Source: a virus
Taxonomy: Duplodnaviria > Heunggongvirae > Uroviricota > Caudoviricetes
Direction: 5' to 3' (one strand)
IMG/VR virus record: IMGVR_UViG_2728369185_000004
Length of the DNA: 8,416 nt
The notes under the pieces are model-generated. The model saw only the letters and a program-made list of their open reading frames with translations. It was not told the origin of the DNA and made no database searches. A program made the translations under genes and the position numbers. Shown here one piece after another: positions 2,813 through 8,162 of this stretch. Each line of letters begins with the position of its first letter. The first letter of the stretch is position 1.

Positions 2813-3678
2813 TTAGAACTGATAAACCAGACCTACAGCGACGATGTCGTCGGTATCAATACCAGCTGTTTTGGTAAACTTACTATCGTCAATTAAGTTG
2901 ATTTTGTAATCAACAAAAGTGGACATGTTTTTATTAAAGTAGTAAGTAGCACCGACATCGACATACTTGACTAAGTCTCGGTCACCATGAACACCAAGGT
3001 CTTTACCTTTTGACTGAAGGTAAGCAACAGATGGACGCAGACCGAAGTCAAACTGATATTGTGCTACTGCTTCAAAGTTTTGTGCTTTGTTTGCAATATG
3101 GTTATTACCAAAAACGGTCATATTCTGAGTTTCAGAATATGTGGTAGCCAGATAGATATTGTTCGCATCATATTTCAGGCCTGCAGCCCATACTTCCGCA
3201 TTTTTGCCGGAGGCATTGAATTTGCTCTTACCATAGGCGACCTGACCGTCAGTGCGATCTGATTTAGCATAGGTTGCACCCACGCCGAATCCTTCATACT
3301 CATAAGTAGTGGAGAAACCGAAACCATCACCATTGGCTTCAGTTACGTCAGTGCGGTCATTTTTACCCTGATACTGAGCAGCAAAGTTCAGGCCATCGAC
3401 CAGACCAAAGAAGTCGTTGTTACGATAAGTTGCAACACCAGTAGTGCGACCAGTCATGAACACATCTGTTTGGGTCCAGGTATCACCACCGAATTCTGGC
3501 AGAACGTCAGTCCACGCACCGATGTCGTATGCTACACCGTAGTTACGGCCGTAATCGATTGAGCCGTAATCACCAAATTTCAGGCCTGCAAATGCAAGAC
3601 GGGTTTTGTCTTTGGAAGAACCTTGAGATTCAGCACGGTTGCCTTTGAATTCATATTCCCACTGACCGAAACCAGTCA
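2813..3678 (-). CDS. nmpC: OmpC/NmpC-family outer-membrane porin, 3' end intact, 5' end runs into the N gap
   Basis: Minus-strand translation is continuous from 3678 to stop at 2813: ...[80 protein letters not shown]...AVGLVYQF, with hallmark porin motifs and the C-terminal YQF. The track start at 3463 is an internal GTG. About 70 N-terminal residues including the signal peptide are unaccounted for. Confidence 0.85.
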
Positions 3679-3771
3679 NNNNNNNNNNNNNNNNNNNNNN
3701 NNNNNNNNNNNNNNNNNNNNNNNNNNNNNNNNNNNNNNNNNNNNNNNNNNNNNNNNNNNNNNNNNNNNNNN
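3679..3771. other. Run of 93 N (unresolved or masked sequence)
   Basis: Literal n characters in the sequence, interrupting the porin 5' region. Confidence 1.
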
Positions 3772-4359: not shown

Positions 4360-4575
4360 ATGAAATCCATGGATAAGTTAACAACGGGTGTCGCCTATGG
4401 TACCTCAGCAGGTAGTGCCGGGTACTGGTTTTTACAGTTGCTCGATAAAGTCACGCCCTCACAGTGGGCGGCAATAGGTGTGCTGGGTAGCCTGGTATTT
4501 GGCCTGCTGACGTACCTGACAAACCTTTATTTCAAGATTAAAGAAGATAAGCGCAAGGCTGCGAGAGGTGAATAA
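4360..4575 (+). CDS. essD: Class II pinholin, phage 21 S-type, dual start (antiholin from Met1, holin from Met4)
   Basis: [71 protein letters not shown]: two TM segments plus a charged C-terminus, matching S21. RBS gaggtgggg at 4349-4357. Confidence 0.9.
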
Positions 4576-5072
4576 TGCCTCCATCATTACGAAAAGCCGT
4601 TGCTGCTGCTATTGGTGGCGGAGCAATTGCTATAGCATCAGTGTTAATCACTGGCCCAAGTGGTAACGATGGTCTGGAAGGTGTCAGCTACATACCATAC
4701 AAAGATATTGTTGGTGTATGGACTGTATGTCACGGGCATACAGGAAAAGACATCATGCTCGGTAAAACGTATACCAAAGCAGAATGCAAAGCCCTCCTGA
4801 ATAAAGACCTTGCCACGGTCGCCAGACAAATTAACCCGTACATCAAAGTCGATATACCGGAAACAATGCGCGGCGCTCTTTACTCATTCGTTTACAACGT
4901 GGGTGCTGGCAATTTCAGAACATCGACGCTTCTTCGCAAAATAAACCAGGGCGATATCAAAGGCGCATGTGATCAGCTACGTCGCTGGACATATGCTGGC
5001 GGTAAGCAATGGAAAGGTCTCATGACTCGTCGTGAGATTGAGCGTGAAATCTGTTTGTGGGGTCAGCAATGA
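4575..5072 (+). CDS. rrrD: SAR endolysin (signal-anchor-release lysozyme, phage 21 R-type)
   Basis: N-terminal Gly/Ala-rich SAR segment ([20 protein letters not shown]) followed by a T4-lysozyme-like catalytic region (E...D...T spacing, ...[25 protein letters not shown]...). ATG 4575 overlaps the holin stop TAA. Confidence 0.9.
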
Positions 5073-5530
5073 ACAGAGTAACCGCGATTATCTCCGCTCT
5101 GGTTATCTGCATCATCGTCTGCCTGTCATGGGCTGTTAATCATTACCGTGATAACGCCATTACCTACAAAGCCCAGCGCGACAAAAATGCCAGAGAACTG
5201 ACGCTGGCGAACGCGGTAATTACTGACATACAGATGCGTCAGCGTGATGTTGCTGCGCTCGATGCAAAATACACGAAGGAGTTAGCTGATGCGAAAGCTG
5301 AAAATGATGCTCTGCGTGATGATGTTGCCGCTGGTCGTCGTCGGTTGCACATCAAAGCAGTCTGTCAGTCAGTGCGTGAAGCCACCACCGCCTCCGGCGT
5401 GGATAATGCAGCCTCCCCCCGACTGGCAGACACCGCTGAACGGGATTATTTCACCCTCAGAGAGAGGCTGATCACTATGCAAAAACAACTGGAAGGAACC
5501 CAGAAGTATATTAATGAGCAGTGCAGATAG
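5069..5530 (+). CDS. rzpD: Rz i-spanin
   Basis: [23 protein letters not shown]... has an N-terminal TM segment then a coiled-coil-rich periplasmic domain. ATG 5069 overlaps the endolysin stop (ATGA). The track start at 5057 is an alternative-codon extension. Confidence 0.85.
5289..5471 (+). CDS. rzoD: Rz1 o-spanin lipoprotein, embedded in the +1 frame of Rz
   Basis: [60 protein letters not shown]: lipobox LVVVGC and proline-rich mature part, essentially lambda Rz1. RBS gaaggag 7 nt upstream. Confidence 0.85.
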
Positions 5531-5561
5531 AGCTGCCCATATCGATGGGCAACTCATGCAA

Positions 5562-5855
5562 TTATTGTGAGCAATACACACGCGCTTCCAGCGGAGTATA
5601 AATGCCTAAAGTAATAAAACCGAGCAATCCATTTACGAATGTTTGCTGGGTTTCTGTTTTAACAACATTTTCTGCACCACCACAAATTTTTGCTGCATCG
5701 ACAGTTTTCTTCTGCCCAATTCCCGAAACGAAGAAATGATGGGTGATGGTTTCCTTTGGTGTTACTGCTGTAGGTTTGTTTCCAACAGTAAACGTCTGTT
5801 GAGCACATCCTGTAATAAGCATTGCCAGAGCGGCAGAAAACAACATTTTTTTCAT
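5562..5855 (-). CDS. borD: Bor lipoprotein (serum-resistance moron)
   Basis: MKKMLFSAALAMLITGCAQQTFTVGNKPTAVTPKETITHHFFVSGIGQKKTVDAAKICGGAENVVKTETQQTFVNGLLGFITLGIYTPLEARVYCSQ matches lambda Bor, lipobox LITGC. Start chosen at the ATG with an AGGA RBS; the track ORF to 5903 is an extension. Confidence 0.85.
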   Translation of the reverse strand: MKKMLFSAALAMLITGCAQQTFTVGNKPTAVTPKETITHHFFVSGIGQKKTVDAAKICGGAENVVKTETQQTFVNGLLGFITLGIYTPLEARVYCSQ

Positions 5856-6335
5856 CTTATTATCCTGCATTGTTAAAAACGGCAGAATCCTATGTGACAA
5901 CAATTAAACGATAGTTAAATGGATTGATGAAAATTAAAACTACACAGGTGGGCTCAGACTATTGGAGGAAGTTGGGGACACTCAGAATCCTGTGGAATGA
6001 AATAAACCGGTCTATCCGTCCATTACCCTTTTAGCTGCGCTGTATCGTCGCCGTATTCCCGCATTAACCATGACCGTAGCCCGACGGGGAATTCCTTCTG
6101 CGTGAGTGTGCGGGAATAATTAAAAACGATGCACACCGGGTTTTTACCGCGTTAATGATTCGCGGGTTTATCCCGGTGCGATGGTGGAAGAAACAGGAAG
6201 CTGTATTACAGAAAGTGCTACTACTGTATCCCGATGCGATGTATGTAATGTGAGTCAGATAATGGCACAGGATGTGGTGATGTGGCAGTCTGGAACACAG
6301 GATATATTGTCAGAATAAGACCCGTAGGAATAAAA

Positions 6336-6662
6336 ATGAAAAGACGCCTTTTACTACTTTTTCTGTTATCTGTCCTGGCAGTGGGATGCTCGCAGCAAAA
6401 AGCTGATGAGCCCCGGCAATTAGTGACGGTGTATCCACGATATCCGGAATATGCTGCAGCAAATTATATCAAGGGGCTGGTTGAGGTTAAGTTCGATATT
6501 GGTGCTGATGGGACTGTGACACGGATCGTTTTTCTCCGCTCAGAGCCTCATAATTTGTTTCGTGATGAAGTGGTGAAGGCCATGGCGAAATGGCGATTTG
6601 AAAAGAATCGCCCCTGTCAGGGAGTGAAGAGACAATTTATCTTTACGCCGTCACGTCCTTGA
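6336..6662 (+). CDS. Lipoprotein with TonB C-terminal-like domain (prophage moron, function unknown)
   Basis: From ATG 6336: signal peptide MKRRLLLLFLLSVLAVGC with lipobox LAVGC. The mature part YPRYPEYAAANYIKGLVEVKFDIGADGTVTRIVFLRSEPHNLFRDEVVKAMAKWRFEKNRP aligns motif for motif with the E. coli TonB C-terminal domain ([59 protein letters not shown]). RBS taggaa at 6325-6330. Confidence 0.6.
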   Translation: MKRRLLLLFLLSVLAVGCSQQKADEPRQLVTVYPRYPEYAAANYIKGLVEVKFDIGADGTVTRIVFLRSEPHNLFRDEVVKAMAKWRFEKNRPCQGVKRQFIFTPSRP

Positions 6663-6784
6663 TGCTTCCAGGTAGAGAGGGGCTGGAAGCAGGAGAAAAA
6701 TGAAAGAGCCAGCGGTTATATTTTTGTCATGGCTGACGAGGAATGATGGAAGAAGGCGTTGTATGCCACACAACGCCTCACTGT

Positions 6785-6964
6785 TCATTTCTTCTTTTTC
6801 TCTGGTGGAACCCGATGAATAAGAGTTGCACTGGTTTCCGATGAGATGGCGATATACTCGGGCAAAGTATGCTGGCAGTTTTCCAACTGGTCAAAAATAC
6901 CTGCTCTCGTCTGTTGCAATGCCTGCAGCATGCGGCGGCAATGCGCCTTGCTTTTACTAACCAT
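6785..6964 (-). CDS. Hypothetical 59-aa protein
   Basis: MVSKSKAHCRRMLQALQQTRAGIFDQLENCQHTLPEYIAISSETSATLIHRVPPEKKKK. Strong RBS on the minus strand (GAGGAAGGAAAG just upstream of ATG at 6964). It is the 3' part of the 117-aa track ORF 6785..7138, whose own start has no RBS. Confidence 0.35.
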   Translation of the reverse strand: MVSKSKAHCRRMLQALQQTRAGIFDQLENCQHTLPEYIAISSETSATLIHRVPPEKKKK

Positions 6965-7025
6965 CTTTCCTTCCTCTATCAGTCGCTGCGTGAACTCATC
7001 ATGGAATACCAGGTAAATGCGGATG

Positions 7026-7277
7026 TTATCGGTTTTGGCTACGCAGCATAGTACAAAACGGACAGGTGCATCCCGGGACGGGGGAGGCGTCACATGTCCC
7101 TGTGATGGTTGTTCCGGGTAATGTACTGTGTGGGGCATAAAAATGTCCGATAATTTTACTTTCTACCGCAGTTAGTTGATTCGTTGGTCCTGGTAGCACA
7201 TTGGGCGAGGATTTAAATGCCAGGCAACTGAAGGATGATGTCGCAAGGGAGATAGCGAGAATATTTCTGATTTTCAT
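7026..7277 (-). CDS. Hypothetical small secreted Cys-rich protein (83 aa precursor)
   Basis: From ATG 7277: MKIRNILAISLATSSFSCLA|FKSS... has a signal-peptide-like N-terminus. The mature part ends in a Cys cluster TGTCDASPVPGCTCPFC. AGAGG RBS about 10 nt upstream. Sits 60 nt upstream of the 59-aa ORF, suggesting a two-gene unit. Confidence 0.3.
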   Translation of the reverse strand: MKIRNILAISLATSSFSCLAFKSSPNVLPGPTNQLTAVESKIIGHFYAPHSTLPGTTITGTCDASPVPGCTCPFCTMLRSQNR

Positions 7278-7425
7278 TTGATGATGCCTCTGTGTGAAAT
7301 GACGGTAAACGACGCACTTGTGCCGGCACATAATAGCAAGCACCATAATAGATCAGATTCGATTCTTGCTGTAAGTGATAATTATTCTCGTTTTCGGGTC
7401 CTTTCCGTCGATCCAACAGGTTACG

Positions 7426-7437
7426 GGGCGGCGACCT
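7426..7437 (+). other. cosN: 12-nt cohesive-end sequence GGGCGGCGACCT, identical to lambda
   Basis: ttacg|GGGCGGCGACCT|cgcgg at 7421-7442 matches the lambda right-end/left-end junction; flanking bases also resemble lambda (CGCGGTTTTTCACTATTTATGAAAATTTT). Confidence 0.75.
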
Positions 7438-7471
7438 CGCGGTTTTTCACTATTTATGAAAATTTTTCAGG

Positions 7472-7589
7472 GAAAATCGTGTCGGTACTTCTCGAATATA
7501 ACTTTTTGTTTTTTTTAATATTGCATCCGTAAAGGTCCGACATGAAAGTGTCCGAAAATGCCTTTTTCTGGCGTTTTCATGTCGGGCCT
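7472..7589 (+). promoter_or_regulatory. cosB-like terminase small-subunit binding region (repeated R-type elements)
   Basis: Inverted pair aggtccgacatgaaa (7532-7546) and tttcatgtcgggcct (7574-7588), 14/15 complementary, plus a related copy on the opposite strand at 7474-7489 (cgtgtcggtac). Lies between cosN and the small-subunit gene, as lambda R3/R2/R1 do. Confidence 0.5.
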
Positions 7590-7613
7590 TGTATTTGATA
7601 ATGGGTTGTTTTC

Positions 7614-8162
7614 ATGAAGGTTAATAAAAAGAGGCTTGCCGAAATTTTCAACGTGGACCCGCGGACGATTGAACGCTGGCAGTCTCAGGGACTCCCTTGC
7701 GCCTCCAAAGGTAGTAAGGGCATTGAATCTGTATTTGATACTGCCATGGCAATTCAGTGGTATGCGCAGAGGGAAACTGATATCGAAAACGAAAAGCTCC
7801 GCAAAGAACTGGACGATTTGCGTGCGGCAGCGGAGTCAGATTTACAACCCGGCACCATTGACTATGAACGCTACCGGCTCACAAAAGCGCAGGCAGATGC
7901 GCAGGAACTGAAAAATGCCCGTGAAGACGGAGTAGTGCTGGAAACTGAACTGTTTACCTTCATTCTGCAACGTGTGGCACAGGAGATTTCGGGGATACTT
8001 GTGCGTGTGCCGTTGACATTACAGCGTAAATATCCGGACATTTCACCATCACACCTTGATGTGGTGAAAACTGAAATCGCGAAAGCCTCCAATGTTGCAG
8101 CTAAGGCCGGTGAAAACGTGGGCGGGTGGATCGATGATTTCAGACGCACAGAAGGCAGCTAA
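7614..8162 (+). CDS. nohD: Terminase small subunit (Nu1-like)
   Basis: [104 protein letters not shown]... closely parallels lambda Nu1, including the N-terminal winged-HTH region. Confidence 0.9.

Follow-up and report, generated by a model that had tools for sequence, protein, structure and literature searches.

What does a TonB C-terminal domain do on a phage chromosome when it is encoded without the rest of TonB? The question is raised by a small gene in an 8,416-nt stretch of Caudoviricetes DNA (IMG/VR virus record IMGVR_UViG_2728369185_000004), here called the window. A prediction made earlier from the sequence alone had described the gene product as a prophage lipoprotein with a TonB C-terminal-like domain, encoded divergently from bor, and had proposed that this lipoprotein could block TonB-dependent uptake. 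We found that the domain and the lipoprotein signal are well supported and that the gene appears to be maintained by selection, while competition with TonB is a tentative reading of its function. The gene and its parts are as follows.

6336-6662 (stop included), plus strand: coding sequence of the TonB C-terminal-domain lipoprotein, 108 amino acids (aa), from the list of open reading frames (ORFs) and the sequence; identical to phage 21 CPT_21_73
6326-6329, plus strand: ribosome-binding site AGGA, 6 nt before the ATG; also annotated as such in phage 21
6336-6389, plus strand: lipoprotein signal peptide (aa 1-17) and Cys18 (codon 6387-6389), with lipobox LAVGC
6390-6410, plus strand: tether SQQKADE (aa 19-25); the TonB alignment begins at aa 24-26, and the predicted local distance difference test score (pLDDT) is low before residue 26
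6411-6650, plus strand: TonB C-terminal-type domain (aa 26-105, equivalent to TonB 153-232), from Pfam, NCBIfam, phmmer against the PDB, AlphaFold2 (AF2) and Foldseek

The reading frame comprises 109 codons including the stop; the original prediction had given a length of 109 aa, one too many. The product is 100% identical to CPT_21_73 of phage 21 ("TonB C-terminal domain protein") and to WP_000830178.1 ("TonB family protein").

The domain was assigned by profile searches and by a structural comparison with TonB, both of which had been suggested as checks in the original prediction; neither of the two computational outcomes that it named as refuting, a missing profile hit or a missing fold match, occurred. 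Pfam TonB_C (PF03544) matched with E = 7.3e-13 and 49.2 bits against a cut-off of 24.6, and TIGR01352 with 47.4 bits against 27.1. In a phmmer search of the PDB, the E. coli TonB C-terminal domain ranked first (1u07, E = 1.4e-14; also 2gsk and 2grx). Residues 24-103 align without gaps to TonB 151-230, with 32/80 residues identical (40%). The claim of a match to TonB motif for motif needs a small correction, since the motifs are present but the Ser of 'S.P.N.F' sits one position off relative to TonB.

An AF2 model built from 34 diverse family members reached a pLDDT of 87, and exceeded 95 across residues 26-105; it was used instead of a model from 8 near-identical sequences, which gave a pLDDT of 58. 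The model superimposed on 1u07, 2gsk_B and 2grx_C with template modeling (TM) scores of 0.91-0.92 and root-mean-square deviations (rmsd) of 0.9-1.5 Å, and Foldseek retrieved 1u07 with E = 1.7e-8. The fit was close to both the BtuB-bound TonB (2gsk_B; rmsd 1.0 Å over 79 residues, TM 0.92) and the FhuA-bound TonB (2grx_C; rmsd 0.9 Å over 75 residues, TM 0.92). The intertwined TonB dimer 1qxx deviated by 18 Å, and the predicted fold is thus that of the monomeric form. The domain consists of a short helix, β1, β2, an amphipathic helix and β3. The protein ends where β4 of TonB would start, and β4 is absent; β3 is kept and confidently modelled, and its edge, together with the amphipathic helix, forms the best-conserved stretches in common with TonB. 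All significant PDB matches were TonB or TolA C-terminal domains, with no Llp or Cor fold among them, and the BFVD viral fold library yielded no match at E ≤ 1e-3.

The protein is not a TonB energy transducer. The TonB equivalogs NF008080-NF008084 scored 45-69 bits against cut-offs of 265-448, with only the last ~80 profile positions matching. The N-terminus is a cleavable lipoprotein signal and not an uncleaved, His-containing membrane anchor, and the 108-aa protein contains no proline-rich periplasmic spacer. Lacking the membrane anchor, ExbB/ExbD coupling and spacer, it would deliver no energy. Compared with the E. coli TonB C-terminal domain (PDB 1U07 and 1XX3; 2GSK with BtuB and 2GRX with FhuA), it therefore shares the fold, the YP motif, the amphipathic helix and β3, but lacks the anchor, the spacer and β4, and its predicted lipid anchor is in the outer rather than the inner membrane.

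The evidence for this location lies in the N-terminus, MKRRLLLLFLLSVLAVGC followed by SQQKADE, which has a basic start, a hydrophobic core, the lipobox, and Ser at the +2 position. Asp at +2 is the inner-membrane retention signal of the Lol pathway, while lipoproteins with other residues proceed to the outer membrane. The lipobox and the Ser at +2 thus predict lipid anchoring and Lol-dependent sorting to the outer membrane. The LAVGC lipobox noticed in the original prediction is well founded, since at least 90% of 34 family members have the Cys that corresponds to Cys18. The strict lipobox pattern was passed by 31 of 35 relatives, the remaining four showing a visible ...AC box, and the +2 residue was Ser in 18, Ala in 6, Thr in 6, Val in 1 and never Asp. 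Only 7 residues separate Cys18 from the start of the TonB alignment, in place of the ~120-residue spacer of TonB.

The protein belongs to a larger group. An exhaustive HMMER scan returned 2795 TonB_C proteins at E ≤ 1e-3, the closest of which include many proteins of 105-133 aa whose alignment begins in the signal peptide and continues through to the C-terminus; further members, in Rahnella, Salmonella, Pantoea and Erwinia, came from a profile search. The family is marked by the motifs YPxYA, G.V...FDV...G.V, S.P.HLFD and KWRFE. Its C-terminus lies 22-25 residues past the conserved Trp, compared with 27 in TonB, which indicates that β4 is missing family-wide. A neighbour-joining tree built from the domain groups the lipoproteins in a clade apart from the enterobacterial TonB C-terminal domains, with 29-45% identity to E. 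coli TonB and 33-49% identity between members of different genera. The gene is thus a member of an old, distinct lipoprotein family and not a recent clipping of E. coli tonB. Separately, P0139, a 152-aa lipoprotein with an ALAGC lipobox followed by SQ and a long linker, carries a domain that falls inside the enterobacterial TonB clade and is 61% identical to E. coli TonB. This suggests that the combination of a lipoprotein signal and a TonB domain arose more than once, with an independent, more recent origin for P0139.

We detected the gene in 1616 of 5426 complete E. coli genomes (~30%), including Nissle 1917, UTI89, NC101, the type strain and other B2 strains. The present allele (allele 1) was found at ≥99% identity in 1201 of these carriers, and a second allele of ~73% DNA identity, which also occurs in Stx1a phages and phage JLK-2012, in 392. 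The ratio of nonsynonymous to synonymous substitution rates (dN/dS) between the two alleles is 0.12 (dS 1.5, dN 0.18), and the polymorphisms within them are mostly synonymous (8/12 and 8/10). These values indicate, at the level of sequence, that the gene is under purifying selection and maintained. They bear on the simplest alternative, namely that a phage captured a dead piece of tonB. The annotations "partial tonB-like" and "TonB fragment" express this notion, and only the last third of TonB is covered. The substitution pattern makes these older labels misleading; furthermore, the gene is full length in 1611 of the 1616 carrier genomes, it has acquired a conserved lipoprotein signal, the family is old, and the fold is predicted with confidence. 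A dead fragment is extremely improbable, and we regard this reading as effectively refuted.

The leading reading is that a maintained TonB C-terminal domain at the outer membrane would act by competing with TonB. The tether of ~7-12 residues would hold the stand-alone domain at the outer membrane, beside TonB-dependent transporters, where it could bind their exposed TonB boxes and perhaps also those of incoming group B colicins. Competition with TonB would then lower the entry of T1/phi80-type phages, colicins, microcins and siderophores. We give this decoy function a little under an even chance. The broader proposal, that such a transducer mimic, carried by phages of Enterobacterales and by some plasmids, excludes TonB-dependent phages, group B colicins and microcins together by hitting their shared coupling step, seems to us rather unlikely.

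Precedents for such competition exist. Exported TonB C-terminal fragments are said to be dominant-negative inhibitors of TonB, from work of Howard in 2001 and Koedding in 2004; Koedding et al. reportedly found in 2004 that fragments of at least 86 residues bound FhuA, inhibited ferrichrome uptake and protected against phi80. Inhibition of the TonB system, siderophore transport included, has also been described for the exported periplasmic fragments 33-239, 103-239 and 122-239 (bioRxiv 10.1101/2020.01.05.895219). Such artificial fragments likewise consist of a periplasmic C-terminal domain that lacks energy coupling, and their size is similar (TonB 151-235), but they are soluble, overexpressed host sequence, whereas the present gene is a natural, diverged phage gene with a predicted lipid anchor and a putative activity. 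A second precedent is provided by Llp of T5 and the Cor proteins, small phage lipoproteins of the inner leaflet of the outer membrane that disable FhuA from the periplasmic side (bioRxiv 10.64898/2026.03.26.714494). Llp and Cor (phi80, N15, HK022) act on a TonB-dependent transporter with the localisation and logic proposed here. However, their fold is unrelated and their action is FhuA-specific and allosteric, whereas mimicry of TonB would target the TonB box that many transporters have in common. Also counted in support of the decoy function are the family-wide lipobox and non-Asp +2 residue, the purifying selection, the full-length state of nearly all copies, and the occurrence of the gene as a solitary gene on plasmids and, in one recurring slot, on several phage lineages.

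In the complexes with BtuB, FhuA and FoxA, β3 of TonB pairs with the TonB box while β4 is disordered (PMC7014051). A scan of 90 residues of the TonB C-terminus identified Y163, F180, G186, F202, W213, Y215 and F230 as important (bioRxiv 10.1101/2021.12.08.471779). All seven have counterparts here (Y36, F53, G59, F75, W86, F88 and F103).

Two of these positions, F202 and W213, are needed for contact with ExbD, and their conservation is in line with a different mode of inhibition, in which the free domain pairs with the TonB C-terminal domain as a strand-swapped heterodimer, or with the periplasmic domain of ExbD, and stalls the energy cycle. Short TonB C-terminal fragments dimerise in crystals via β4 or strand exchange (PMC7014051), and the inhibition by exported TonB domains has been re-examined as possible ExbD-TonB interference (bioRxiv 10.1101/2020.01.05.895219). 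On the other hand, the short outer-membrane tether would keep the domain far from ExbD in the inner membrane, the dimerising β4 is missing, and the model adopts the monomeric fold and not that of the intertwined dimer. We therefore consider such poisoning of the transducer improbable.

When the protein would be made depends on the position of the gene in the prophage. Over positions 5500-7700, the window matches the icd-integrated lambdoid prophage of phylogroup B2 strains (Nissle 1917, ATCC 11775 and many clinical isolates) with 100% identity. The neighbouring features are as follows.

4360-4575: S21 pinholin
4575-5072: signal-anchor-release (SAR) endolysin
5057-5530, plus strand: Rz i-spanin (Pfam Phage_lysis, E = 1.7e-53); constant upstream neighbour
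5289-5471: Rz1 o-spanin, embedded in Rz (Pfam Rz1, E = 2.9e-20)
5562-5855, minus strand: iss/bor lipoprotein gene (Pfam Lambda_Bor; RefSeq 'increased serum survival lipoprotein Iss')
6145-7369: mosaic module of ~1.2 kb, with the TonB C-terminal-domain lipoprotein gene, small ORFs at 6181-6318 and 6700-6822, and antisense ORFs at 6785-7346
7396-7425, plus strand: cosQ and right chromosome end (cos) of the phage; the phage 21 record stops at position 7425
7396-7402: cosQ, equivalent to L001 8061-8067 (phage 21 annotation)
7614-8162, plus strand: terminase small subunit Nu1 (Pfam Phage_Nu1, E = 1.9e-81); next late gene downstream

The gene has the orientation of the late operon, within whose Q-dependent transcription unit it is located; this unit runs from pR' through S, R and Rz, the gene and cos to Nu1. 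Neither a consensus scan nor a weight-matrix scan found a plus-strand sigma-70 promoter above background upstream of the gene, and an autonomous promoter was rejected accordingly; a TGTYAGAAT element at 6308-6316, common to both E. coli alleles, is weak evidence for one. Because the gene is inside the late unit and has no convincing promoter of its own, synthesis would probably take place mainly in lytic growth, with low expression, if any, in the lysogen. The moron position assumed in the original prediction therefore stands only in part: the gene occupies an accessory slot of a lambdoid prophage, but, instead of being a moron expressed in the lysogen, it may belong to the late genes.

No Fur-box-like site was found upstream of the gene in a scan of the window. 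The top Fur-box-like matches in the window are at 7371-7395, with 14-15/19 identities to GATAATGATAATCATTATC, directly before cosQ and 0.7 kb downstream of the gene; they are probably an AT-rich coincidence, and Fur regulation was rejected. The conserved segment upstream of the gene gave no Rfam match to a structural RNA and is ordinary lambdoid backbone, common to phage 434 and many other phages.

That the gene is divergent from bor, as originally predicted, was confirmed by the minus-strand bor/iss gene. Bor/Iss and other lambdoid right-end genes are comparable in that a lipoprotein gene occupies the variable stretch that separates the lysis cassette from cos. However, bor has its own promoter and runs against the late operon, whereas the present gene runs with it and has no evident promoter, and the two proteins are unrelated. 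The proximity to bor, which had been stressed, turned out to be incidental when we compared 80 IMG/VR loci (58 with allele 1 and 22 with allele 2). The counts were as follows.

Allele 1, 58 loci: Rz upstream in 55, bor upstream in 36, Nu1-type terminase downstream in 55
Allele 2, 22 loci: Rz upstream in 19, bor upstream in 0, Nu1-type terminase downstream in 5

The constant neighbours are a spanin gene upstream and a terminase gene downstream. The slot from spanin to gene to terminase, with all three co-oriented, recurs in at least five phage lineages whose endolysins and terminases are unrelated. Examples are a Klebsiella phage with a family member of 41% identity, a Rahnella prophage with a GH19 endolysin, a GpA terminase and a member of 33% identity, and, on a megaplasmid of Salmonella Muenchen, a prophage that combines a P27-type terminase with an HK97-type head.

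This slot bears on another reading, an accessory lysis or late-stage factor acting with the spanins. Besides its place directly after the spanin gene and its presumed co-transcription with late genes, the protein gives a full-length hidden Markov model match to PHROG 1267 ('Rz-like spanin') with E = 5e-43. PHROG 1267 is the phage protein family to which the gene belongs, but its functional label does not fit a TonB_C domain. We rejected a spanin identity because the domain is globular TonB_C and not a proline-rich o-spanin, the C-terminal membrane segment of unimolecular spanins is lacking, and a complete Rz/Rz1 pair is adjacent; in addition, relatives exist without any lysis genes. The label is probably mistaken and most likely stems from gene position and lipoprotein signal; a lysis role is very improbable. 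We also observed a match to the C-terminal positions 162-242 of phrog_34172 (function unknown, profile length 251), a hint that other phages may encode longer TonB-like proteins, perhaps of full length.

Outside phages, the family also occurs in ordinary chromosomal and plasmid contexts, and the phage-specific framing of the original prediction is accordingly too narrow. Solitary members lie beside lacZ/lacI in Klebsiella and Raoultella, between ycgN and dsbB in Serratia, near ara genes in Erwinia, in Pantoea and Salmonella chromosomes, and inside a cellulose-synthesis locus. Members are also present on plasmids of Klebsiella, Pantoea, Serratia and Salmonella, and a 129-aa member on a metagenomic plasmid-like contig (L109 3515-9646) has ParM/StbA partition genes on one side and a KAP NTPase/QatB (Qat defence) cluster on the other.

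On Klebsiella IncFIB/IncFII plasmids (L113 11956-13486; L115 6057-10707), a 111-aa member is followed by an 'Exc2 family lipoprotein' gene and is oriented towards the genes for a klebicin/cloacin-type rRNase bacteriocin and its immunity protein. The bacteriocin operon of pFF979_2 additionally contains a holin/lysis cassette of phage type. We found the complete arrangement on 13 plasmids of one lineage of Klebsiella IncF plasmids. A link to bacteriocins was rejected, as the bacteriocin has a glycine-rich group A (Tol-type) N-terminus and only these 13 plasmids are concerned.

Several observations weigh against a TonB decoy. The seven residues shared with TonB are mostly core or fold-determining and are no proof of a shared partner. 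Residues that contact the TonB box in TonB are altered: Q160 is Y here (L in allele 2), V225 is K, V226 is R and K231 is T. R158, in the TonB-box-contacting Q160 region, is T or K, and R166, which we take to be a FhuA contact of TonB, is Y. Nissle 1917, UTI89 and other B2 carriers depend on TonB-driven siderophore uptake, which makes a strong constitutive block unlikely. The lack of a Fur box and of a promoter above background upstream of the gene is in line with this, and late, Q-dependent expression may leave no obvious selective benefit of a TonB block. The PADLOC anti-phage defence models matched no family at E ≤ 1. In the contexts examined, no TonB-dependent transporter, exbBD or iron-regulated operon lies beside the non-phage members. 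Finally, the stable single chromosomal genes outside phages in Klebsiella, Raoultella, Serratia, Erwinia, Pantoea and Salmonella speak for a function that is milder or of another kind. The changed contact residues are not decisive, because the Q160 region is dispensable in TonB (bioRxiv 10.1101/2021.12.08.471779) and strand pairing is largely backbone-driven.

Many of these points would equally fit a protein of the same fold with another partner, an outer-membrane-tethered periplasmic module that binds peptidoglycan or an envelope protein without measurable TonB inhibition. Effects on envelope stability, vesiculation or serum resistance might be conceivable in that case. The separate clade with its low identity to E. 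coli TonB, the family-specific motifs YPxYA and HLFD together with the changed TonB-box contacts, and the many ordinary chromosomal members without phage or iron context are all in keeping with it. Moreover, carriers are known to use TonB normally, and TonB_C domains are present in many multidomain proteins that are not transducers. Against another partner, no neighbourhood points to one, the β3 edge and the amphipathic helix are the stretches best conserved relative to TonB, and the enrichment on phages and plasmids suits a conflict function better than housekeeping. We consider a different partner somewhat unlikely.

The gene travels in a larger accessory segment. In a blastn comparison with phage 434, the lysis cassette and bor are common to both at 96.7% identity; the match ends at 6144 and restarts at 7370, which assigns the gene to a ~1.2-kb mosaic module at the far right of the phage chromosome, with the gene ~760 bp from the end. 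At this place, phage 434 has a different segment of ~0.4 kb with a DUF3950 gene on the opposite strand. The module is kept together in 57-58 of the 58 allele-1 loci. The antisense-ORF block at 6785-7346 accompanies the TonB-like gene in 57/58 loci. Within this part of the module, a 60-aa plus-strand ORF (6869-7051), which RefSeq and phage 21 both annotate, matches PHROG 3744, and the last 59 aa of a 117-aa minus-strand ORF (6785-7138) match PHROG 4843. Also on the minus strand, an 83-aa ORF without annotation (7026-7277) encodes a signal peptide and a C-terminus rich in Cys, and overlaps opposite-strand ORFs. Self-exclusion through the receptor of the phage itself was also considered; the last 300 aa of the phage 21 J protein are 55% identical to lambda J, from which the receptor is not identifiable.

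The prophage also encodes sitABCD (an Fe2+/Mn2+ ATP-binding cassette importer), an OmpC/NmpC-type porin and iss, as located below.

2813-3463 of the window; L005 21967-25416 (phage 21); L006 15461-18910 (Nissle prophage): sitABCD/porin/iss cargo

Counting the TonB-domain lipoprotein, a single phage-21-type element carries four accessory functions that concern the envelope or metal uptake. In the window, 93 masked bases (N) at 3679-3771 break the 5' part of the porin gene, of which the C-terminal 216 aa are readable; Nissle 1917 has an intact 1083-bp ompC-like gene. The co-resident porin and SitABCD importer might soften an iron cost in phage-21-type prophages. sitABCD is present in 7/7 allele-1 phage records; ~20 sit-carrying phages are without the gene, and allele-2 phages are without sit. 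We rejected a functional link to sitABCD, as the co-occurrence reflects shared ancestry and is not independent evidence for compensation of an iron cost.

The original prediction had left open whether the protein was characterised, and this doubt was apt: databases give only 'TonB family protein' or 'TonB C-terminal domain protein', and a full-text literature search, with subscription-only literature outside its reach, found no functional study of the gene or family. The domain assignment is thus already in databases, and the new element is the variant of architecture, in which phages and plasmids carry a TonB C-terminal domain with a predicted lipid anchor but without the transducer. The gene is widespread among complete E. 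coli genomes and is carried by the classical phage 21, yet it is only generically named. If it blocks TonB, it would represent a new exclusion principle, in which mimicry of the host transducer hits all TonB-dependent transporters at once. This would bear on phage therapy, on the colicin and microcin sensitivity of extraintestinal pathogenic E. coli and Klebsiella, and on the uptake of siderophore-antibiotic conjugates, and would provide a natural tool for probing TonB-box recognition. If TonB is not blocked, the family would exemplify reuse of the TonB C-terminal fold as an outer-membrane-anchored module with another partner.

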